NCBI RefSeq assembly: GCF_055900595.2
Contig: NZ_CM148325.1
Strand: one strand, 5' to 3'
DNA: 64,000 bases
A program made the translations under genes and the position numbers. How positions within the stretch are numbered: the first letter of the stretch is position 1; each line of letters opens with the position of its first letter. The notes under the pieces were generated by a model, which was given only the letters and a program-made list of their open reading frames with translations, was not told the origin of the DNA and did no database searches. This document shows, piece after piece, positions 27,170 to 39,572 of this stretch.

Positions 27170-28180
27170 TCAGTGCTGCCGCAAAAAGTCTTCAATGTCA
27201 GTCAGTGAGGATACCCCTTCCATCGGACCTTGTCGCATTACGGCGAGCGCGCCGCTGGCATTTGCATATTGCAGCGCCTTGTGTGCCGGGATACCGGATA
27301 AGAAAAGAGTGACAAACGTTGCGCCAAAGCAGTCGCCTGCACCCGTTGGATCGATTATTTCGATATCGTGGCCTGCAACATGCTGGGCGTGTAATGTTCC
27401 GTTTTTAAGCTTGTAATAGCTGGCCCCACGCTGGGCGCGTTTTATCGCCACATGTTTTACGCCGCCGTGGAGAAGATCGCTAACAATCTGTTCTTCTGAC
27501 AGATTTTTGTGACGCGCGAAGAAAGGGAGTTCGCTTTCGCTGGGGATAAAAATATCCGTATATTCAATCAAATAATCGAGAGCCTGCGCCATTTCAGGAA
27601 TACTCAGCATCTCTTTGCGAATATTGGGATCGAAAGAAACGGTGCCGCCAGCCGATTTGATCGTCGTTATTGCTTTACGCATGACATCGATCATGCGAAA
27701 TGAGAACAATGATGAGCCCACAATATGCAGATGGTTACACTGTTTTAGCAGATCCTTATCAATGTGCTCGGCAGTAAACAAACCGCAGGCGCTGTTAGGG
27801 ATATTAAAGACGAAATCCCGCTGCTGGGGATTTTGATAACTCACGAATGCCGTACCTGTTACGGCATTGTTCATAACATGGATCCCATCGGTAATGACAC
27901 CTTCATGACGGAGGCGCTCTATAATGAGTCGGCCAAAATCATCATTACCAACACATCCGAAGAAGATGGCCCGATGGGACAGTTTTGCCACCTGAGCAGC
28001 AAAAATTGCTGGTGCACCGCTGGGAAATGGCCCGATAAACTCCCCAGGCTGAGTGAATTTTTGATGTGGGTTGCGGGACAAAAACTCGGCCAGCAATTCG
28101 CCCATAGCGCAGATAGTTATTGTCACAAAACCCCTCTCATTCCTGAAGCCTTTCGCGATTGGACCAGGTAAAGCACTCAT
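27170..28180 (-). CDS. PfkB-family carbohydrate kinase (island kinase A)
   Basis: 336-aa ORF; PfkB signature DPTGAGDCFG and the GG dipeptide region; paralogous to 33661-34623; true start may lie at an internal GTG or ATG 18-25 codons downstream (alignment with the paralog starts near TITICAMGELL). Confidence 0.85.
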   Translation of the reverse strand: MSALPGPIAKGFRNERGFVTITICAMGELLAEFLSRNPHQKFTQPGEFIGPFPSGAPAIFAAQVAKLSHRAIFFGCVGNDDFGRLIIERLRHEGVITDGIHVMNNAVTGTAFVSYQNPQQRDFVFNIPNSACGLFTAEHIDKDLLKQCNHLHIVGSSLFSFRMIDVMRKAITTIKSAGGTVSFDPNIRKEMLSIPEMAQALDYLIEYTDIFIPSESELPFFARHKNLSEEQIVSDLLHGGVKHVAIKRAQRGASYYKLKNGTLHAQHVAGHDIEIIDPTGAGDCFGATFVTLFLSGIPAHKALQYANASGALAVMRQGPMEGVSSLTDIEDFLRQH

Positions 28181-28967
28181 TACTGGTATAAAGGATAACG
28201 AAATCAGCCGACTGCAATTGTTGCTGATATTGTTCGTTAATGCTGCGGCTGACGATCACATTTTCTGCCTGATGCAAATGTCCAATGGCAGCCGTTGATG
28301 GCGCAGGATCGGCGGCAACGATAACTGTCTTATTCTGGGCATGATCGAAACAGAGCTGCCAGGCAGCGGCAAGTCTGGGAACGTTGATATTTAAAGTACC
28401 ATCAGCATCCAGATGGCTGATTTCCAGAATGCTGTGTGTAATGGTGAAATGCTGAAGTGCCTGTTCGAGCGGTTTTCCGGCCAGTGCGGTGTCGGGGCGC
28501 AGCATTTCACTGCCAGCCAGTATTATTTCGCCATCAATAAACTGATTTGCCAGCAGCGCATGTTCGGGATCGTTGGTGATCAGACGCAGTTTTTTCACTT
28601 CGCTGAGCAATGGAATGATCTTACGGCAGATTGTCCCATGTCCAAGAAATAGCGTGTCACGATCGCGAATTAACCGTGCGCAATGTCGTGCTATTTCCAT
28701 TTGTTGTGCCAGAGACAATGGCGCGATCGGTTGTATCGCTTCTGGTTCAGAGGAGAGGGGGGTCGCAATAGCACCGCCAAATGATCGCTTTAAATATCCC
28801 TGTTGCTCCAGATAACTGAGATCGCCGCGGATCGTCACGCCAGAGACACCAAGTTGCGCAGATAAGTCATCAACTTTGATTTCACCCTGGGCGGCAACAA
28901 TTTCTGCAATTTTTAATCTGCGTTTCAGTAGGTTAGACGATTTTCTCGGCACGTTAACACTCTTCAT
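28137..28967 (-). CDS. DeoR-family transcriptional regulator
   Basis: 276 aa; N-terminal DeoR-type winged HTH (RRLKIAEIVAAQGEIKVDDLSAQLGVSGVTIRGDLSYLEQQGYL), C-terminal sugar-phosphate-binding-like domain; upstream of kinase A and divergent from the aldolase-transporter operon. Confidence 0.85.
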   Translation of the reverse strand: MKSVNVPRKSSNLLKRRLKIAEIVAAQGEIKVDDLSAQLGVSGVTIRGDLSYLEQQGYLKRSFGGAIATPLSSEPEAIQPIAPLSLAQQMEIARHCARLIRDRDTLFLGHGTICRKIIPLLSEVKKLRLITNDPEHALLANQFIDGEIILAGSEMLRPDTALAGKPLEQALQHFTITHSILEISHLDADGTLNINVPRLAAAWQLCFDHAQNKTVIVAADPAPSTAAIGHLHQAENVIVSRSINEQYQQQLQSADFVILYTSNECFTWSNRERLQE

Positions 28968-29281
28968 TGGCCTTTAATGCGTAACACTATAGCCCCTTGT
29001 ATTTTTCTTTGAAAGTTATCCTTCAATAATATCGACAATTCGAAAAGGAAATCATGGGCCAGAAATCGCAACGAAAATAGCTTAATGCATTGAAAAATAG
29101 ATGAATTAATTCATATTTATGCAGAGGTGTTATTGGTTTCACTTGCAAAGTGAAAAACAAATTAAGTTATTTTTTGTAAGTTATTTTGATGATATTCGAC
29201 ATGTATCACGCTTTTTACCGCTTTTGCTGTGCTAGTTTGCTTTCAAAATGAAAGTGAAGATTCTCTTTCTTCATTTTGTAA

Positions 29282-30163
<882 letters not shown>

Positions 30164-30198
30164 GACGTTGTACCCTACAAAAACAATGAGGATTGTTT

Positions 30199-31089
30199 AT
30201 GAAAAATATTAAATTACTTGGTTCCGCTATGATGGTGAGCCTGGCATTGTTCTCGCAAAGTTCATTGGCAAAAGAGTATAAAATTGGAGCTTCATTATTA
30301 ACACAGCAACACCCTTTTTATATCGACCTCGCAAATGCAATGAAAGAAGAGGCGAAAAAAGACAATGTCAATTTAAGTGTCTCTATTGCCAATCAGGATT
30401 TAAACAAACAGCTTTCTGATGTTGAGGATTTTATTACTAAAAAGGTAGATGCCATTATTATCTCTCCGGTCGATTCGAAAGGTGTCCAGGCAGCGATAAT
30501 TAAAGCCGATAAGGCTGGTATTCCCGTTATCACCGTTGACGTTGCCGCGGAAGGCGTTCCGGTCGTATCGCATGTTGCGACCGATAATTACGCGGGTGGC
30601 GTTGAAGCTGGTAAGTTAATGGGCAAACTTTTGAATGGTAAAGGTACTGTAGCCATTATTTCTTATCCTGCACTACAATCGGTGGTTGCACGCGTTGATG
30701 GCTTTAAGAAAGGATTAAGCGATACGCCGGATATTAAAATTGTTGCTGAACAGCCGGGTATAACGCGGGCTGAAGCGTTAACGACTGCGCAAAACATTAT
30801 GCAGGCCAACGCCAACCTGAATGGTCTGTTTGGCTTTGGTGATGATGCGGCGCTGGCGGCGGTTATAGCGGCGAAATCTGCGCATAACGACAACATCAAA
30901 ATCATTGGTTTTGATGGTATGAAAGAAGCGCGAGATGCCGTTGATAGTGAAAAAACGTTTGCGGCCGTGATTCGGCAATATCCCGATCAAATGGGTGCTA
31001 AAGCCATTGATGCCGCTGTTGATCACCTCAATGGTAAACCGGTAGAGAAAATGATCCCGGTACAACCCGGCGTTTATACAGGTAAATAA
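30199..31089 (+). CDS. periplasmic sugar-binding protein of ABC transporter (RbsB-like)
   Basis: ATG at 30199 with GAGGA Shine-Dalgarno; signal peptide MKNIKLLGSAMMVSLALFSQSSLA then KEYKIGAS...; the track ORF starts 2 codons upstream at an alternative codon. Confidence 0.85.
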   Translation: MKNIKLLGSAMMVSLALFSQSSLAKEYKIGASLLTQQHPFYIDLANAMKEEAKKDNVNLSVSIANQDLNKQLSDVEDFITKKVDAIIISPVDSKGVQAAIIKADKAGIPVITVDVAAEGVPVVSHVATDNYAGGVEAGKLMGKLLNGKGTVAIISYPALQSVVARVDGFKKGLSDTPDIKIVAEQPGITRAEALTTAQNIMQANANLNGLFGFGDDAALAAVIAAKSAHNDNIKIIGFDGMKEARDAVDSEKTFAAVIRQYPDQMGAKAIDAAVDHLNGKPVEKMIPVQPGVYTGK

Positions 31090-31104
31090 TAAACATCTTC
31101 ATTT

Positions 31105-31135
31105 CACAACAAAACGTTATCGACGTTTTGTTGTG
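31105..31135 (+). other. intercistronic stem-loop between binding-protein and ATPase genes
   Basis: 13-bp perfect inverted repeat CACAACAAAACGT / ACGTTTTGTTGTG with a 5-nt loop, read directly. Confidence 0.7.
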
Positions 31136-31149
31136 ACACCGAGGTCATT

Positions 31150-32649
31150 ATGACGGATGTTATTCTTGATGTTTCGCATATTGCGAAGACATTTGGTCAT
31201 GTTCAGGCATTAAAAGATATTACACTCTCTTTACGTAAAGGGCGGGTACATACTTTATTAGGTGAGAATGGTGCCGGTAAATCGACATTAATGAAAATAT
31301 TGGCCGGTGTTTATCCGCCAACCCAGGGAACAATAAAACTACGTGGTGAAACTATCACAATTAATAATCCGCAGCATTCACGTCAGTTAGGGATTGCTAT
31401 TATTTTTCAGGAACTGAGCCTGAGTAATAATATGACAGTGGCGGAAAATATTTATGCCAATAATGAACCGCGACGTTTTGGCATTATTAACGATAAAAAA
31501 ATGCTCGCAGATTGCCAGAATCTCCTCGCGGAACTGGGCATCCCACTGGATCCGCTGGAAATGGTCGGCAATATGTCGATGGCACATAGGCAACTGGTAG
31601 AAATTGCCAAAGCCTTAAGCTATGCAGCAGATGTCGTGATTATGGATGAACCGACATCTTCGCTAAGTGATAATGAAGCAGAGATTCTGTTTAACATTAT
31701 TGAGAAATTAAAGCAGCGAGGTTGTGCGGTTATTTATATCTCTCATCGCATGGATGAAATTATGCGGATTTCAGATGATATTTCGGTGATCCGCGACGGT
31801 GAGTATATCGCTACGCATGAAAAGAAAAACAGTGATATCCAGCATTTGATTGCCCAAATGGTTGGTCGGGAAATGAAAAATATTTGGCCAGCACGTCTTG
31901 GGGAAAAGCCGGATGAAAATGTTCCTGCAAAACTGGAAGTAAAAAACCTTTCCCATCCTTCGCTTTTTAAAGAGGTCAGTTTCGCTGTGCGTCCGGGGGA
32001 AGTCCTCGGATTTTTTGGCCTGGTGGGGGCCGGGCGTTCCGATGTGATGAAGGCGCTATTTGGCCTCGTTTCGTATCACGGGACTGTGTTGATTGATGGT
32101 AAGGAAGTCAGGATCGCTAATCCCAAACAGGCTATTGATCATGGCATTGCTTTTGTGACCGAAAACCGCAAGGAAGAAGGGTTAGTGCTGATGCACGACG
32201 TCAATATGAACACGCACCATGTGGCGTTTCAATATAACGCTTCGCGGATGGGACTCATCAATCACCGACAAGAAGAGGCGAAGACGCTGCAATCTATTGC
32301 CAGAATGAACACTAAAGTGAGTTCTGTACATCAGGCAGTGGGAGCGCTGAGCGGCGGTAATCAACAGAAAATCGTGTTATCCAAGTGGCTGGAGAAAACT
32401 CCGCGTATTTTATTGCTCGATGAGCCAACGCGCGGAGTGGATGTCGGCGCAAAATTTGAAATCTATAACGTGATACGTCAACTGGCTGCGGCAGGGACAG
32501 CAATTATTCTGGTGTCCTCTGAACTGCCAGAGGTCATGGCACTTAGCGATCGTCTGGTGGTAATGCGTAATAAAACGATTGCCGATATTTATTCATGTGA
32601 AAATTTAACGCAGACACAGGTAATGACCGCTGCAACAGGAGTACGTTAA
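31150..32649 (+). CDS. sugar ABC transporter ATP-binding protein with tandem ABC domains (CUT2 type, RbsA-like)
   Basis: 499 aa; Walker A GENGAGKST (N-domain) and GLVGAGRS (C-domain), signature LSGGNQQK, Walker B LLLDEPTRGVD. Confidence 0.9.
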   Translation: MTDVILDVSHIAKTFGHVQALKDITLSLRKGRVHTLLGENGAGKSTLMKILAGVYPPTQGTIKLRGETITINNPQHSRQLGIAIIFQELSLSNNMTVAENIYANNEPRRFGIINDKKMLADCQNLLAELGIPLDPLEMVGNMSMAHRQLVEIAKALSYAADVVIMDEPTSSLSDNEAEILFNIIEKLKQRGCAVIYISHRMDEIMRISDDISVIRDGEYIATHEKKNSDIQHLIAQMVGREMKNIWPARLGEKPDENVPAKLEVKNLSHPSLFKEVSFAVRPGEVLGFFGLVGAGRSDVMKALFGLVSYHGTVLIDGKEVRIANPKQAIDHGIAFVTENRKEEGLVLMHDVNMNTHHVAFQYNASRMGLINHRQEEAKTLQSIARMNTKVSSVHQAVGALSGGNQQKIVLSKWLEKTPRILLLDEPTRGVDVGAKFEIYNVIRQLAAAGTAIILVSSELPEVMALSDRLVVMRNKTIADIYSCENLTQTQVMTAATGVR

Positions 32650-33639
32650 ATGACAGAGAAAACTCTTGCCAGTCCGAAACCTTCGGAAATTCCCATTGCA
32701 AATAATTTTAAAAAAGTCTTCAGGCAATATGGCGGTATCCTCAGTGGAATGGTGGTGTTAATCATTCTGTTCAGTCTTATTAATGACAGTTTTTTTACTG
32801 CCAATAACATTACTAATATTATTCTTCAGGTTTCGATAATTGCAATTACCGCCTATGGAATGACTTATGTACTTTTGCTTGGCGATATTGATTTATCAGT
32901 CGGTTCAACCATTGCATTGATTGGCACATTTGCTGCGCTTGGGGCTTCATGGGGAATTCCATTTATTTTATTGGTCCCATTATCCATTATTGCAGCCCTG
33001 GCTCTGGGGATGATAAATGGTGGCTTGACGGCTATAGCGGGTATCCCTTCGTTTATTGTCACCGTTGCTACAATGGGGATCTTCCGTGGTATCGCTTATA
33101 TAGTGACCGATGGTATGCCCATCATGATTAAAGATGATGCCTTTCTGGCGCTGGGGAATGGAGAATTTCTCTATATACCTATTCCTATCTGGATATTAAT
33201 CATCTTATTGCTGATTAACCACTTCATTCTTACTAAAACAACCTTTGGACGAAAAATTTATATCACTGGTGGTAATAAAGAAGCGGCAGTTTATTCAGGG
33301 ATAAATGTCACCCGCTTGAAAATTAAAGTCTTTATGATTACTGCAGTGCTGGCAGGTATCAGCGGGATGATCCTCGCCTCACGCCTCTATTCCGGGCAAC
33401 CGAATTCCGCGTTGAGCTACGAACTGGATGCTATTGCCGCGGCTGTACTGGGAGGCACCAGCCTGAACGGCGGCTATGGAACGGTGGTGGGGACGGTAAT
33501 CGGGGCATTAACCATCGGCGTTATTAATAATGGCATGAACTTAATGAACGTTCCCTATTTCTATCAGATGGTGGTTAAAGGATTAGTCATTCTTGTAGCC
33601 GTTTATTTTGACGTAAGAAATAAAAGAAAACGTAGCTAA
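32650..33639 (+). CDS. sugar ABC transporter permease (RbsC-like)
   Basis: 329-aa hydrophobic multi-pass protein; the ATG directly abuts the ATPase stop (TAAATG). Confidence 0.88.
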   Translation: MTEKTLASPKPSEIPIANNFKKVFRQYGGILSGMVVLIILFSLINDSFFTANNITNIILQVSIIAITAYGMTYVLLLGDIDLSVGSTIALIGTFAALGASWGIPFILLVPLSIIAALALGMINGGLTAIAGIPSFIVTVATMGIFRGIAYIVTDGMPIMIKDDAFLALGNGEFLYIPIPIWILIILLLINHFILTKTTFGRKIYITGGNKEAAVYSGINVTRLKIKVFMITAVLAGISGMILASRLYSGQPNSALSYELDAIAAAVLGGTSLNGGYGTVVGTVIGALTIGVINNGMNLMNVPYFYQMVVKGLVILVAVYFDVRNKRKRS

Positions 33640-33660
33640 TCATTTCAAGGAATTAATTAT

Positions 33661-34623
33661 ATGAGTAAGGTCTTCACAATTGGAGAAATTCTGGTTGAAA
33701 TTATGGCGAGTAAAATCGGCCAGCCATTTGATCAACCAGGTATCTGGAACGGCCCTTATCCCAGTGGTGCGCCCGCTATTTTTATCGACCAGGTGACACG
33801 TCTTGGTGTTCCGTGCGGCATCATTAGCTGTGTGGGGAATGATGGCTTTGGTGATATTAATATACATCGTCTGGCTGCTGATGGTGTGGATATCAGGGGG
33901 ATTTCAGTCTTACCTCTGGAAGCCACCGGGAGTGCCTTTGTTACTTATCATAACTCTGGCGATCGCGATTTTATTTTTAATATCAAGAATGCCGCTTGCG
34001 GTAAATTATCGGCGCAGCATGTTGATGAAAATATACTGAAAGACTGTACCCATTTTCATATTATGGGCTCATCCCTGTTTTCATTTCATATGGTAGACGC
34101 AGTAAAAAAAGCAGTAACCATCGTTAAAGCAAATGGTGGCGTTATTTCTTTCGACCCGAATATTCGTAAAGAGATGCTCGATATTCCAGAAATGCGTGAC
34201 GCCCTCCACTTTGTTCTTGAGTTAACAGATATCTATATGCCCAGCGAGGGAGAAGTGTTGCTCTTGTCGCCACACTCGACACCGGAGCGTGCAATCGCTG
34301 GTTTTCTTGAAGAAGGTGTTAAAGAGGTGATTGTGAAGCGCGGCAATCAAGGTGCCAGTTACTACTCCGCGAATGAGCAGTTTCATGTTGAGAGCTATCC
34401 GGTGGAAGAAGTTGACCCGACCGGTGCGGGAGACTGCTTTGGTGGCGCGTGGATTGCCTGCCGCCAGCTAGGGTTTGACGCCCATCGGGCATTACAATAT
34501 GCCAACGCCTGCGGTGCACTGGCGGTAACCCGACGTGGCCCAATGGAGGGAACGTCTCGCCTTGCGGAAATCGAAGCGTTCATCCAGCGCCATGACATGT
34601 CCATTCGGGAAGCAGCACAATGA
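33661..34623 (+). CDS. PfkB-family carbohydrate kinase (island kinase B)
   Basis: 320 aa; DPTGAGDCFG signature; shares long identical stretches with kinase A (PYPSGAPAIF, GSSLFSF, SFDPNIRKEML, ALQYANA, GPMEG). Confidence 0.9.
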   Translation: MSKVFTIGEILVEIMASKIGQPFDQPGIWNGPYPSGAPAIFIDQVTRLGVPCGIISCVGNDGFGDINIHRLAADGVDIRGISVLPLEATGSAFVTYHNSGDRDFIFNIKNAACGKLSAQHVDENILKDCTHFHIMGSSLFSFHMVDAVKKAVTIVKANGGVISFDPNIRKEMLDIPEMRDALHFVLELTDIYMPSEGEVLLLSPHSTPERAIAGFLEEGVKEVIVKRGNQGASYYSANEQFHVESYPVEEVDPTGAGDCFGGAWIACRQLGFDAHRALQYANACGALAVTRRGPMEGTSRLAEIEAFIQRHDMSIREAAQ

Positions 34624-35666
34624 AAAACGAAATTTGGTCGTGGATTGGCGATCTCTCGCAGGTTGCCGGAATTAAACACTATGAGTTACGCAGTGGCAGA
34701 TCAAAGGGGACAGAAGCGTTTGATGTCCGTACTGGTGCGGGATTGGCATTTACGGTGGTAAAAGATCGCGCGCTGGATATTGCATGGGCCAGCTACAAGG
34801 ACACTGCGCTCTCTTTTATCACCCCCAACGGCATTGTCGCCCCCGCTTTTTTTGAGTCTCAGGGCAACGGGTTTTTACGTAGCTTCTACGCGGGGTTACT
34901 GACTACCTGCGGACTTAGCTACATTGGCACGCCCTGTGAGGATAACGGAGAAACGCTGGGGTTACACGGGCGTTTGGCTGCGACTCCAGCAGAAGAGGTG
35001 GGGTATCGCACAGAACGGACCGACGACGGCATTGAATTTGTCATCAATGGCAAAGTACGGGAAACACGATTGTTCGGTGAAAATCTGACGCTGGAAAGGA
35101 CCATTCGCTGCCGTTATGGCGAAAATGTGCTGCGCATTGAAGACAAGGTGACTAATCATGGTTTCACCCGCCAGCCGCTGCAAATTCTTTATCACTTTAA
35201 TTACGGCTGGCCTTTATTATCGCCACAGGCAGAAATCTTGCTGTCGGCTAAAAGCGTAACGCCACGAACCCCGCATGCGGCGGAAGGGTTAACCAGTCAT
35301 CTGGAGATTTGTACCCCACAGCCCAGTTTTGACGAGCAGGTTTACTATCTCACGTTGAATAGCGACAGTCAGGGGATGAGTAAAGTTGCGCTGGTGAACG
35401 CCGAACTGGGGTGGGGAATTTACGAGAAATTCGACACCATGCAGCTACCCAACTTTATCCAGTGGAAAAATTTAGGCGCGGGTGAATATGTTATGGGGCT
35501 GGAGGTCAGCAATAGTTTTCCTGACGGTCGTGATAAAGAACGAGCGCAGGGGCGTCTGCCCTTTATAGAGCCAGGGGAAACAAAGACATACTGCTTTGAG
35601 CTGGGAATTGTTGATGGCGATGCTGAAATTAGCGCGTTGAAAGCGGAAATTGCAAGCTACCGTTAG
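34620..35666 (+). CDS. conserved protein of unknown function; possibly an aldose-epimerase-like fold (DUF4432-type), not verified
   Basis: 348-aa ORF whose ATG overlaps the kinase B stop (ATGA); no recognisable catalytic motif by eye; the family assignment is a guess from memory. Confidence 0.6.
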   Translation: MKNEIWSWIGDLSQVAGIKHYELRSGRSKGTEAFDVRTGAGLAFTVVKDRALDIAWASYKDTALSFITPNGIVAPAFFESQGNGFLRSFYAGLLTTCGLSYIGTPCEDNGETLGLHGRLAATPAEEVGYRTERTDDGIEFVINGKVRETRLFGENLTLERTIRCRYGENVLRIEDKVTNHGFTRQPLQILYHFNYGWPLLSPQAEILLSAKSVTPRTPHAAEGLTSHLEICTPQPSFDEQVYYLTLNSDSQGMSKVALVNAELGWGIYEKFDTMQLPNFIQWKNLGAGEYVMGLEVSNSFPDGRDKERAQGRLPFIEPGETKTYCFELGIVDGDAEISALKAEIASYR

Positions 35667-35682
35667 CTAACGGCAATAAAAA

Positions 35683-35709
35683 CGCCGGGCAGCGTTAACA
35701 GGCCCGGCG
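35683..35709. terminator. hairpin between the convergent island operon and accC; likely bidirectional terminator
   Basis: CGCCGGGC / GCCCGGCG inverted repeat, an A-tract on one side and TT on the other. Confidence 0.6.
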
Positions 35710-35757
35710 TTGATTACGTTCTTTGCTAAGCGCGATGAAAACACCGCGCGTCACAAA

Positions 35758-37107
35758 TTATTTTTCCTGAAGACCGAGTTTTTTCTCCAGATAGTGGATG
35801 TTAGTGCCACCATGCTGGAAGTTCTCGTCATTCATGATGCGGATCTGCAGATCAACGTTGGTTTTGATACCGTCGATGATCAGCTCCTGCAGCGCATTCT
35901 TCATGCGGGCAATCGCCACGTCACGGTTTTCACCGTAGCAAATCAGCTTACCGATCATTGAGTCATAGTACGGCGGTACGGTGTAGCCCGCGTAGATATG
36001 AGACTCCCAACGCACGCCAAAACCGCCAGGTGCATGGAAACGGGTGATTTTGCCCGGGCTTGGCAGGAAGGTGTTAGGATCCTCGGCGTTAATACGGCAT
36101 TCCACCGCATGGCCGCGAACGTGAACTTCTTCTTGCTTGATCGACAGCGGCTGACCAGCAGCAATACGCAGTTGTTCTTTGATCAGGTCAACACCGGTGA
36201 TCATTTCAGTAACCGGGTGTTCTACCTGAATACGGGTGTTCATTTCGATGAAATAGAACTCGCCGTTTTCGAACAGAAACTCGAAAGTACCTGCACCGCG
36301 ATAGCCGATATCAACACACGCTTTAGCACAACGTTCACCGATGTAGCGACGCAGTTCCGGGGTAATGCCCGGTGCTGGCGCTTCTTCGACCACTTTCTGG
36401 TGACGACGCTGCATAGAGCAGTCACGTTCCGCCAGATAGATAGCGTTGCCCTGACCGTCCGCCAGTACCTGGATCTCGACGTGGCGAGGATTTTCCAGGT
36501 ATTTCTCCATGTAAACCATGTCGTTATTGAAAGCGGCTTTCGCTTCCGCACGGGTCATGGAGATGGATTGCGCCAGTTCAGCGTCGCCGCGTACTACACG
36601 CATACCACGACCGCCGCCGCCGCCGGAGGCTTTGATAATCACCGGGTAACCAATGCGTTTTGCAATGGCGCGGTTTTTATCCATATCGTCGCCCAGCGGG
36701 CCGTCAGAACCTGGTACGCAAGGAACGCCCGCTTTTTTCATCGCCGCGATTGCTGATACTTTATCGCCCATCAGGCGAATGGTTTCGGCTTTCGGGCCGA
36801 TGAAGATAAAGCCGGAGCGTTCAACCTGCTCGGCAAAATTGGCGTTCTCGGAGAGGAAGCCGTAACCCGGATGGATTGCTACTGCGCCGGTGATTTCAGC
36901 GGCGCTGATGATTGCCGGGATGTTCAGATAACTTTTTACTGACGGAGCAGGGCCGATACAGACCGTTTCGTCTGCCAGTAATACGTGTTTTAGATCGCGA
37001 TCCGCACTGGAGTGCACAGCGACAGTCTTGATGCCCAGTTCTTTACAGGCACGAAGAATACGCAATGCAATCTCGCCGCGGTTGGCAATAACAATTTTAT
37101 CCAGCAT
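35758..37107 (-). CDS. accC: biotin carboxylase subunit of acetyl-CoA carboxylase
   Basis: 449 aa from [33 protein letters not shown]; the track ORF carries a 13-codon upstream extension. Confidence 0.97.
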
Positions 37108-37117
37108 GTTCGCCTCG

Positions 37118-37588
37118 TTACTCGATGACGACCAGCGGCTCGTCAAATTCTACCGGTTGTCCACTTTCGACCAGAATTGCTTTCACGGTACCGGATTTGT
37201 CCGCTTCGATCTGGTTCATCATTTTCATGGCTTCAACGATGCACAGGGTATCGCCCACGTTGACTTTCTGACCCACTTCGATGAACGCTTTTGCGTCCGG
37301 GCTTGGGGTGCGGTAGAAAGTACCAACCATCGGGGAACGTACGATGTGACCACTGATTTCCGCTGCTGCTGGCGCTTCCATGGAAGGAACGGTCGCCGGA
37401 GCGGCTGCGTTAGATTGAGCTGGCTGCTGCATCATTGGTGCAGCGTAAGCTTGTTGCATCACAGGGAAACTTGCGGCAGGAGCTGCACGGCTGATGCGTA
37501 CTGACTCTTCGCCTTCGGAGATTTCCAGTTCGGAGATGCCTGATTCTTCAACCAGCTCGATCAGTTTTTTAATCTTACGAATATCCAT
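37118..37588 (-). CDS. accB: biotin carboxyl carrier protein
   Basis: 156 aa; Ala/Pro-rich linker and biotinylation motif EAMKM. Confidence 0.97.
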
Positions 37589-38597
37589 GAGTGGGTTCCG
37601 TACTCTTTGTTTAGTGTGATTGTGACAGGCGTTTCACCGCCGTCTGTAAAGCGTATGCCCCGACAGCTGTATGCATAGCGATAAATTCCAGCAGGCCGGG
37701 ACGCCGGTCTATTTTGCCCCAGAGTGTCAATGTTTAGACTTGACGGACATTGTGCAGCGATCTGCTGCTATCCTCCGGCAAAAAACAAAATATACCTTCG
37801 TTGCGCCAATGTCACCTTTTCCGCAGCGCAAAAACTGCGTCAGGGAGGACGAGGTCGCACATTATAACGATTTCGTAGCAATTGGCAGCTAAATACTGGT
37901 CTTATCAGGGAAGATAATCAACAGCTAACATGTAAATAACCTTCAACACCGTGTAATTTGCAACAAGCCGCACAATTCACGAAATTAGCGCTATCGTCGA
38001 CGGAACTTCTTATAACGTAAGGCTAAAAGCTGTAAAGCCAGCTCTGCGAAGATGAGGGGCTGCAATGAGATGATCCTCACAGACCACAAATAATGTAGGG
38101 TTGCCAGGATCGCGACAAGATAGACGACATTACGCAGCGGTTGCTGGGGATTACTCAATTTTCACGGCATCGTCCGGATAGACGTCAATGCTAAAGCACG
38201 CAAAATCAACAAACTGACAATGCTCAGCATCAAATAGTTTTGAGTGGTTAATTTATAATCTAATAAAATCAGATTATTCACCCCTGGGATCAGAGTTAAG
38301 GTACAGATTAAGCGTAGCGTCACCCAGGCAAAGCGCCTTAAACCTAACAGACGACGGGACGTATCAATAATGACTATTTAGTGGAGTATCAAGGGTGTTT
38401 TCCACCGTTTGGTGACCCGTATCAATGCGCATCAATTTATGGTCAGTCGAAATCATGACTTTCCAGTTTGGATTATGTTGTACAACTTTCTGACCAAGGT
38501 GTTCGACGAAAGCTGTCCGGCTAACCGCTTTTCCCGTTAATCGATGGAATAATGATTTCAAAATGAGTTCCCTCTCTTATTAATCCTTGCTAAATGG

Positions 38598-39572
38598 TTA
38601 ATTAATCTTCACCAGCGTGCGACCCTGGATCTGGTTATTAATGATGGCTTCGGCAAACTTTGGTGCTTCTGCCAGAGATATCTCTTTTGCTGCCTGGGTA
38701 TAGAATGATTCCGGTAAATCGGCGACCAGTCGCTGCCAGGCTTGTGCGCGGCGTGCTGGTGGCGTCATCACTGAATCCACCCCTTGTAAACGGACATTAC
38801 GCAGAATAAATGGCATGACCGTTGTTGGCAGAGTAAAACCACCCGCCAGACCACAAGCTGCCACGCAGCCTCCGTAATTCATTTGCGCCAGCACTTTCGC
38901 CAGCACTTTGTCGCCAACGGTGTCAATTGCCCCAGCCCAGAGTTGTTTTTCCAGAGGACGGGATTCGGCAAACTCATCGCGAGGGAGAATACGGCTGGCA
39001 CCTAAACTTTTCAGATATTCATGGGTACTTTCGCGACCGGAAACGGCAACGACCTGATAACCCAACTTATGCAGCAGCGCCACGGCGGTACTGCCGACGC
39101 CACCACTGGCACCCGTTACGACAATCTCGCCGTCCTGCGGGCGAACACCGGCATCTTCCAGCGCCATCACACACAGCATGGCGGTAAAACCGGCAGTACC
39201 GATAATCATTGCTTTACGCGCGTCCAGCCCTTGCGGCATGGCAACCAGCCAGTCACCTTTCACTCGCGCCTGCTCCGCCAGCCCACCCCAGTGGTTTTCA
39301 CCAACGCCCCAGCCAGTGAGTAATACGTCCTGACCGGCATGAAAACGCGGATCTTCGCTGGTGCGTACAGTTCCGGCAAAATCGATCCCAGGAATCATCG
39401 GAAAATTACGGATGATTTTTCCCTTACCGGTAATTGCCAGCGCATCTTTGTAGTTCAGGCTCGACCAGTGAACATCAACCGTGACATCGCCCTCCGGCAG
39501 GCGACTTTCGTCCAGAGTCTGTACCGATGCGAGAGTTTTGCCGTCCTGCTGTTCTAAAAGTAACGCCTGCAT
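38598..39572 (-). CDS. acuI: acrylyl-CoA reductase AcuI (YhdH), MDR-family NADPH-dependent oxidoreductase
   Basis: 324 aa; nucleotide-binding motif TGASGGVG. Confidence 0.9.
   Translation of the reverse strand: MQALLLEQQDGKTLASVQTLDESRLPEGDVTVDVHWSSLNYKDALAITGKGKIIRNFPMIPGIDFAGTVRTSEDPRFHAGQDVLLTGWGVGENHWGGLAEQARVKGDWLVAMPQGLDARKAMIIGTAGFTAMLCVMALEDAGVRPQDGEIVVTGASGGVGSTAVALLHKLGYQVVAVSGRESTHEYLKSLGASRILPRDEFAESRPLEKQLWAGAIDTVGDKVLAKVLAQMNYGGCVAACGLAGGFTLPTTVMPFILRNVRLQGVDSVMTPPARRAQAWQRLVADLPESFYTQAAKEISLAEAPKFAEAIINNQIQGRTLVKIN

Follow-up and report, generated by a model that had tools for sequence, protein, structure and literature searches.

What does the last gene of the D-tagatose operon of Escherichia coli do? 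The gene, tagE, lies in a 64,000-nucleotide stretch of an E. coli chromosome (contig NZ_CM148325.1 of assembly GCF_055900595.2), referred to here as the window, which carries dusB, prmA, panF, yhdT, an 8.5 kb island, accC, accB, acuI and csrD. The island, at the yhdT–accC site, has eight genes, with tagK-tagR divergent from tagYABCDE, and is the already published D-tagatose utilization cluster of E. coli Nissle 1917 (EcN), which occupies the accC–yhdT interval and is missing from K-12 (PMC9720028); the names tagK-tagR and tagYABCDE came later (PMC12226905). The open reading frame (ORF) at 34620–35666 on the + strand is tagE of EcN (ECOLIN_RS18670 / HW372_RS02470), and its operon, its induction and a putative assignment are likewise already known. 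Both papers on the cluster name TagE a ‘putative aldose 1-epimerase’ (Ha et al. 2022, PMC9720028; PMC12226905). TagE is the cluster's only enzyme without an assigned reaction, in agreement with the original prediction, made from the sequence of the window, that it is the least understood component of the locus. The answer that we favour, with moderate confidence, is that TagE opens the ring of free D-tagatose and catalyses its mutarotation, feeding the furanose or open-chain form to the 6-kinase TagD.

The tagE ORF starts with ATG and encodes 348 amino acids, and the RefSeq coding sequence in an identical genome has the same start and stop (locus L001, 9001–10047) and is named ‘aldose 1-epimerase family protein’. 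Since the ORF of tagD, the kinase gene (33661–34623, + strand), ends at 34623, the tagD stop and the tagE start share the ATGA at 34620–34623 (+ strand). A Shine-Dalgarno-like GGGAAG (34607–34612, + strand) can be read within the 3′ end of tagD, 7 nt before the tagE ATG. The next gene, accC, is on the opposite strand and thus tagE is terminal in the + strand operon. Between the convergent tagE and accC genes is a 10-bp GC-rich hairpin (35681–35711, not assigned to a strand) with a predicted RNA folding energy of −21.6 kcal/mol (z = −2.73), a smaller form of which was also picked up on the − strand by a pattern scan; this is likely to be a bidirectional terminator. These results agree with the original prediction as to the ends of the ORF, the overlap of its start codon with the kinase stop and its last place in the operon. 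The overlap would imply translational coupling of tagD and tagE, but the fixed stoichiometry with the kinase that had been read into it does not follow, as a stop/start overlap implies coupling and neither fixed stoichiometry nor a complex.

A Pfam search with TagE gave a single match, to DUF4432 (PF14486), with an E-value of 5.1 × 10−104 and residues 29–329 aligned to positions 2–303 of the 304 in the model. We found 553 homologues at E ≤ 10−5, and all those listed carry PF14486. The family is a broad one, with 3190 representatives at 50% identity (E ≤ 10−3) spread over Bacillota, Bacteroidota, Planctomycetota, candidate phyla and archaea. The N-terminus of TagE (MKNEIWSWIGDLSQ...) has no hydrophobic core, and residues 2–348 align with cytoplasmic-type homologues. 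The ratio of non-synonymous to synonymous substitution rates (dN/dS) for tagE, relative to its orthologues in a divergent Escherichia and in Klebsiella spallanzanii, is 0.056–0.060, similar to that of tagY and somewhat above those of the transporter and kinase genes, and the gene is under purifying selection. Given the full-length family match, the number of homologues and the low dN/dS, tagE is a genuine gene and not a chance ORF.

No NCBIfam model matched TagE, and the Pfam scan gave no match to the RbsD_FucU family or to GatZ/KbaZ-type or other epimerase families. The sole solved relative detectable by sequence is 3TY1 (KPN_04629 of K. pneumoniae; E = 10−32, 27% identity). A structure of TagE was predicted with AlphaFold from 36 homologues, with a mean predicted local distance difference test (pLDDT) score of 90, and a Foldseek search of AFDB50 with this model retrieved only uncharacterized DUF4432 or ‘aldose 1-epimerase family’ entries. 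The predicted fold is a GalM-type β-sandwich, not that of RbsD, and on this model TagE belongs to the galactose mutarotase-like superfamily. Within the superfamily, the modelled fold is as close to the hexose-6-phosphate mutarotases as to the GalM-type enzymes, while sequence identity to GalM and the other PF01263 aldose 1-epimerases is 10–15%.

Conservation was measured over 145 DUF4432 representatives that are 32–45% identical to TagE. The near-invariant positions are H116-G117, R160, D175, N179, Y191-H192-x-N194-x-G196-x-P198, W282-K283, Y290 and E295-P296, and four of these residues, H116, H192, N194 and E295, are each conserved in 99% of the sequences. His116 (codon 34965–34967, + strand; motif GLHGR), which is invariant in alignment A1, is the candidate first mutarotase histidine. 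The H116-G117 pair is 97–99% conserved and resembles the LH104GG motif of GalM, an equivalence drawn from motif and spacing only, and H116 is probably the retained mutarotase histidine. The candidate general acid is His192 (codon 35193–35195, + strand; motif LYHFNYGWP) and the candidate general base is Glu295 (Glu295-Val296 codons 35502–35507, + strand; motif GLEVSN). When a DUF4432 profile made from the 145 sequences was searched against the PDB sequences, it placed YH192 on the histidine of the YH(T/S)xF motif of 4BZE/3MWX (Bacillus subtilis aldose 1-epimerase) and of 3OS7, and placed E295 on the glutamate of the EP motif in all three. The TagE motifs also parallel LH104GG, NH175VYFNL and LE309S of E. 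coli GalM. Because of the conserved histidines and glutamate, the profile alignment and the GalM-like motifs, TagE appears to be equipped for ring-opening (mutarotase) catalysis without a cofactor.

The original prediction had found no assignable motif and had proposed an isomerase, epimerase or mutarotase-like step. The Pfam search and the structure prediction with fold comparison, both of which it had suggested, supply the missing assignment (DUF4432, with a galactose-mutarotase fold), as do the RefSeq name and the published name tagE. Of the three types of step, the mutarotase-like one is upheld by the fold, the His/Glu residues and the family placement, while the isomerase and the epimerase are not, there being no cofactor or metal family signature and no configurational change that the pathway needs. 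The proposed link to carbohydrate metabolism stands, as the family found is not one with an unrelated function.

How might such an enzyme serve the tagatose pathway? Free D-tagatose, mostly in the pyranose form, would be brought in by TagABC, an RbsB-type transporter of the ATP-binding cassette (ABC) family. The pyranose ring of a 2-ketohexose is closed through O6, and a free 6-OH would be present only in the furanose and open-chain forms; TagD should therefore be limited to these minor forms. For ring opening by TagE, Glu295 would serve as the general base towards the anomeric C2-OH, and His192, with help from His116, as the general acid towards the ring oxygen. The ring forms would thereby interconvert faster, and the kinase-competent form would be refilled as fast as TagD uses it. 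The tagatose 6-phosphate (Tag-6-P) formed would be converted to tagatose 1,6-bisphosphate (Tag-1,6-BP) by PfkA and then cleaved by TagY. TagE would in this scheme be a rate-enhancing accessory rather than an essential enzyme, with the role that RbsD has in rbsDACBK and that GalM, which follows GalK, has in galETKM. The published data on the kinase step are that TagD orthologues in rhizobia make Tag-6-P and that E. coli then needs PfkA, with pfkA performing the Tag-6-P to Tag-1,6-BP step (PMC9720028, PMC12226905), and that a PfkB fructokinase of Vibrio cholerae binds β-D-fructofuranose (PMC6240065).

A number of observations weigh against this proposal. We know of no enzyme with the galactose-mutarotase fold that acts on a ketose or carries out a pyranose–furanose conversion. 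The premise that D-tagatose in water is mainly pyranose is general background, and a citable tautomer composition was not found in the literature looked at. TagE gave no match to the Pfam Aldose_epim family (PF01263), even at an independent E-value ≤ 10 in hmmscan. The profile alignments to the solved mutarotases, although they agree with the fold match, are weak (E = 0.007–0.13), and hhalign gave no meaningful alignment of the DUF4432 alignment with the single E. coli GalM sequence; a search started from GalM to obtain a diverse mutarotase profile returned only enterobacterial sequences at least 76% identical to it. No characterized activity was found for any DUF4432 member, in the literature or among the AFDB50 entries, the literature on the E. 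coli tag cluster yielded no TagE function beyond ‘putative aldose 1-epimerase’, and a literature search on tagatose with mutarotase or lacX found nothing on TagE. The tagatose clusters of α- and β-proteobacteria have the same kinase and ABC system with no DUF4432 gene (PMC9720028), and the ring-opening step can therefore be dispensable. Finally, the proline that follows the catalytic glutamate, 99% conserved in the family, is replaced by Val296 (35505–35507), a change seen only in the enterobacterial tag-cluster clade. Two other conserved positions differ in this clade, with Asp61 replacing Gly and Gln188 replacing Met, and all three may be changes of specificity. More tentatively, and with rather less assurance than for ring opening of tagatose as such, we suggest that TagE and part of DUF4432 are ketose-specific ring-form converters, acting at C2 of a 2-ketohexose and exposing O6 to a PfkB kinase, with Glu-Val marking the tagatose-specific clade. 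Ketose ring-form conversion would, if true, be an activity not described for the galactose-mutarotase superfamily.

The choice of free tagatose as the substrate draws on the genomic neighbourhoods of the family. We surveyed 80 loci from species-representative genomes and 5 metagenomic loci. Neighbours were classified with locally built hidden Markov models and NCBIfam, after a first pass with single-sequence phmmer had left many of them unclassified. About one-third of the loci had no classified neighbour, and some DUF4432 genes adjoin unrelated housekeeping genes (argS, ftsZ, spoVB). The typical setting is a sugar catabolic cluster, with the DUF4432 gene beside an importer and the first cytoplasmic enzyme; importers of the ABC, sodium/solute symporter (SSF) and major facilitator superfamily (MFS) types, aldose–ketose isomerases, sugar 1-dehydrogenases with a lactonase, and PfkB or FGGY kinases all occur. 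Counting loci with a given neighbour within 6 kb, PfkB proteins were present in 18 of the 80, rbs-type binding proteins in 14, FGGY kinases and mannitol-dehydrogenase family proteins in 11 each, class II aldolases, lyxose/mannose-isomerase-like cupins and short-chain dehydrogenases/reductases (SDRs) in 8 each, and fucose-isomerase-like proteins and zinc-dependent alcohol dehydrogenases in 6 each.

Several arrangements serve as examples. Two loci (L006, L032) have an ABC importer followed by DUF4432, an SDR and a lactonase; three (L008, L020, L085) have an isomerase, DUF4432, a class II aldolase and an FGGY kinase in that order; and in L044 an SSF importer precedes a DUF4432 gene that overlaps a Gfo/Idh/MocA sugar dehydrogenase. 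In L044, L051 and L064 the DUF4432 gene overlaps a downstream ORF of 333–337 amino acids by a few nucleotides (listed as −3); that of L044 matches inositol 2-dehydrogenase and xylose 1-dehydrogenase models, giving another tightly coupled pair of a mutarotase-like protein and a first enzyme. A recurrent set in Bacteroidota metagenome-assembled genomes (MAGs; L024, L027, L031, L034, L036, L037, L041, L052) runs from a mannosidase like those of glycoside hydrolase family 38 (GH38) through DUF4432, an MFS sugar transporter, a lyxose/mannose-isomerase-like cupin and a PfkB-like protein (∼400 amino acids) to a mannitol-dehydrogenase family protein. This gene order suggests a mannoside/mannose route, with DUF4432 as a putative mannose mutarotase. 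The DUF4432 loci showed no phosphotransferase system (PTS) components of the Man, Fru or Gat type, in a scan of limited sensitivity that covered those three PTS families only. Because of the importers, the first-enzyme neighbours and the absence of these PTS components from the scan, the contexts point to free sugars rather than sugar phosphates as the DUF4432 substrates.

Pairing of DUF4432 with a tagatose-kinase-like PfkB protein recurs in three or four independent lineages, including distant Firmicutes. In a Clostridiales MAG (L033; JAJUJH010000033.1, 582–9152) a TagKinase-like PfkB gene (279 bits) is followed after a 16-nt gap by DUF4432. Other genes of the locus encode an ABC importer of the rbs type, a ROK kinase, a class II ketose-bisphosphate aldolase and a 6-phosphofructokinase of the PfkA type, and there is also an unassigned ORF of 189 amino acids. 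From its gene content this appears to be a self-contained version of the E. coli tagatose route, with its own gene for the PfkA step, for which E. coli relies on its core genome. In a Eubacteriales MAG (L070) DUF4432 comes first, followed after 3 nt by a TagKinase-like PfkB gene (264 bits), and GolD/DthD-type polyol dehydrogenases and an rbs-type ABC importer are also present. In Blautia schinkii (L077) the TagKinase-like PfkB gene is 4 kb downstream of DUF4432.

These contexts bear on the alternative that TagE acts one step later, as a sugar-phosphate anomerase that converts the α/β furanose forms of the Tag-6-P made by TagD to the anomer preferred by PfkA, on the model of Ymr099c and YeaD. 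The position of tagE behind the kinase gene, with its translational coupling, fits this idea, as does a fold equally close to the hexose-6-phosphate mutarotases, and the conserved basic residues R50, R160 and K283 could in principle bind a phosphate. The Gram-positive lac operons for tagatose 6-phosphate also end in a mutarotase-like gene, lacX. However, across the family DUF4432 lies beside enzymes of unphosphorylated sugars (the isomerases, the 1-dehydrogenases with lactonase, and the GH38-like mannosidase with its mannose-isomerase-like cupin), sugar arrives unphosphorylated through the neighbouring importers, with no PTS detected in the limited three-family scan, and the conserved residues in these free-sugar contexts are identical to those of TagE. 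In L070 DUF4432 precedes the kinase, and the GalM gene also follows a kinase gene yet GalM acts before GalK. We consider action on Tag-6-P unlikely.

Somewhat less likely still is that TagE is an ordinary aldose mutarotase for some other substrate of TagABC, such as a galacto- or talo-configured aldose, and irrelevant to tagatose. In most DUF4432 contexts it is aldoses that are isomerized or oxidized, the RefSeq name is that of an aldose 1-epimerase family, and the α- and β-proteobacterial tagatose clusters manage with no DUF4432 protein (PMC9720028). But the E. coli island encodes neither aldose isomerase nor dehydrogenase; besides TagE its only enzymes are an aldolase for ketose bisphosphates and two PfkB proteins that resemble ketohexokinases. 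Tagatose induces the six-gene cluster, which allows growth on this sugar (PMC9720028), the pairing with tagatose-kinase-like PfkB proteins recurs in distant Firmicutes, and the substitutions close to the active site in the enterobacterial clade suggest a changed specificity.

That TagE is a true epimerase or isomerase, converting tagatose to fructose or sorbose, or Tag-6-P to fructose 6-phosphate (Fru-6-P), was an option named in the original prediction and would match the operon position of the unrelated tagE of Sinorhizobium meliloti, which encodes a Tag-6-P epimerase (PMC9720028). We regard it as very improbable: DUF4432 is the only Pfam match, with no GatZ/KbaZ-type or other epimerase family, the fold and the His/Glu pair are the set of cofactor-free ring-opening catalysts, and the dependence on pfkA together with a dedicated tagatose-bisphosphate aldolase means that carbon passes via tagatose 1,6-bisphosphate without epimerization. 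Least credible of all is a non-catalytic TagE, either a chaperone or modulator of TagY (in the manner of GatZ, which GatY requires and which the island lacks despite its GatY-like aldolase) or of the kinase to which it is translationally coupled, or a sugar-binding regulator, since the His/His/Glu residues are each conserved in 99% of the representatives and are kept by purifying selection, K. spallanzanii has tagE with no tagY detected, class II aldolases are nearby in only 8 of the 80 DUF4432 loci, and no GatZ similarity was found in the scan of these loci.

The tagE gene was found in 1421 of 5426 complete E. coli genomes (26%). Any sequence of the island occurs in 1422 genomes, and 1419 of them have 80% or more of it; tagE is not lost separately. 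The island of the window is a minority allele, at least 99% identical over the whole 8.5 kb in 8 genomes and 95–99% identical in 1413, and its TagE is 98% identical to the dominant E. coli cluster (P0001) and 97% identical to B7N130. In K. spallanzanii (L013, NZ_CABGGS010000010.1), tagK, tagR, tagA, tagB, tagC, tagD and tagE are present, and the tagY aldolase was not detected within 10 kb; this pairing of tagD and tagE without tagY links TagE with sugar uptake and phosphorylation and not with the aldolase. A divergent Escherichia (L011, strain E69, CP089930.1) carries the island at the same yhdT–accC site (compared with window positions 25394–39572), and synonymous divergence (dS) is 0.40–0.76 for the island and 0.08–0.53 for the flanking core genes, that is, similar or only somewhat higher. 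A recent horizontal acquisition was rejected because of this shared site and flank-like divergence, which suggest an old resident that has been lost by many E. coli lineages. We also considered whether a 493-amino acid NCBI protein (P0017) with PfkB and DUF4432 domains is a natural kinase–TagE fusion; this was rejected in view of its 97% identity to E. coli TagE, and the most likely origin of P0017 is a frameshift at the ATGA junction, by which tagD and tagE were joined in a single E. coli assembly.

The other genes of the island were also identified. TagD is a PfkB-family D-tagatose kinase that scores 414 bits on the NCBIfam TagKinase model NF049991 (cut-off 420), and deletion of its EcN orthologue abolished growth on tagatose (PMC9720028). 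Upstream, tagA, tagB and tagC (30193–33639, + strand) encode the RbsB-type binding protein, the ATPase and the permease that make up the sugar ABC importer, as judged from the ORFs, RbsB/AlsB-like NCBIfam matches and RefSeq. The first gene of the operon, tagY (29309–30163, + strand), encodes a GatY-like class II tagatose-1,6-bisphosphate aldolase (NCBIfam PRK12737 GatY, 521 bits, above the cut-off). The six-gene operon is induced from >40-fold to >1000-fold by tagatose and is necessary and sufficient for growth on it, with tagE in EcN being up >40-fold (PMC9720028). The divergent operon (27170–28967, − strand) consists of tagR (28137–28967, − strand), encoding a DeoR repressor, and tagK (27170–28105 in RefSeq, − strand), encoding a second PfkB kinase, which scores 347 bits on the NCBIfam tagatose-kinase model. 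DeoR-family repressors often sense sugar phosphates. A low-level kinase, TagK, encoded beside the repressor TagR, might produce the true inducer, Tag-6-P, whereas the 2025 paper on the tag cluster takes tagatose itself as the inducer. TagK is reported to be 51% identical to TagD and to be co-transcribed with tagR (PMC9720028, PMC12226905), the latter paper being the source of its name.

The tag cluster allows E. coli of phylogroup B2 and others to grow on the food sweetener D-tagatose; the probiotic Nissle 1917 is one of these strains, and so are many extraintestinal pathogens. To what was published, our analysis adds the residue and fold support for a mutarotase-type site, the purifying selection on tagE, its all-or-none inheritance with the island, the free-sugar contexts of DUF4432, the recurrent kinase–DUF4432 pair and the O6-exposure rationale. 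Once shown, the reaction of TagE would complete the pathway and could help tagatose-inducible expression systems and engineered tagatose catabolism, and it would be the first experimentally anchored function for DUF4432. The gain for the pathway itself is incremental, as TagE would be an accessory, rate-enhancing enzyme of a known route, but it offers a tractable entry to an uncharacterized family.

How does TagE compare with known systems? The TagE of EcN is the same gene as that of the window, with the same yhdT–accC position, eight-gene organization and length. The solved protein 3TY1, a structural-genomics ‘hypothetical aldose 1-epimerase’, is also a DUF4432 member but of another subfamily, and it keeps the proline after the catalytic glutamate. 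The S. meliloti and Agrobacterium tumefaciens proteins called TagE share the name and the position after an orthologous tagABCD module, but they are D-tagatose-6-phosphate 4-epimerases (Tag-6-P to Fru-6-P) and unrelated to E. coli TagE, so that this is a name collision and not homology; the rhizobial and E. coli sequences are noted to be highly divergent (PMC9720028). The collision could spread wrong annotations.

Dedicated accessory anomerases are found in other catabolic clusters. YhcH, the N-acetylneuraminic acid ‘openase’, acts in the cytoplasm as an anomerase, supplying NanA with a minor form of the sugar, and provides a competitive advantage without being essential (PMC8141875). It is a DUF386 metalloprotein but, like the proposed TagE, it is an accessory enzyme of a catabolic cluster that serves the first committed enzyme. 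The sulfoquinovose mutarotase YihR, a PF01263 member acting on an aldose, is likewise a cytoplasmic accessory anomerase dedicated to one pathway, where it supplies a minor ring or open form and gives an advantage in competition; neither YhcH nor YihR acts on tagatose. The PF01263 aldose 1-epimerases (Lactococcus lactis 1L7J, B. subtilis 3MWX/4BZE and E. coli GalM) act at C1 of aldopyranoses, whereas for TagE the proposed site of action is C2 of a ketohexose, with exposure of O6. In gene arrangement GalM is a close parallel, as in E. coli K-12 the GTG start of galM overlaps the end of galK (GTGCTGA; L002, 3832–3838), much like tagD and tagE, and a kinase gene with a coupled mutarotase gene behind it is therefore an established arrangement. 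The closest functional parallel would be RbsD, the D-ribose pyranase, which turns imported pyranose into furanose before a PfkB-family kinase phosphorylates the terminal hydroxyl. RbsD and FucU are unrelated to TagE in fold and family, and the analogy is a functional one only. By NCBIfam, TagA, TagB, TagC and TagD are RbsB-, RbsA-, RbsC- and RbsK-like, respectively, and the logic proposed here for the tag cluster would be that of rbsDACBK.

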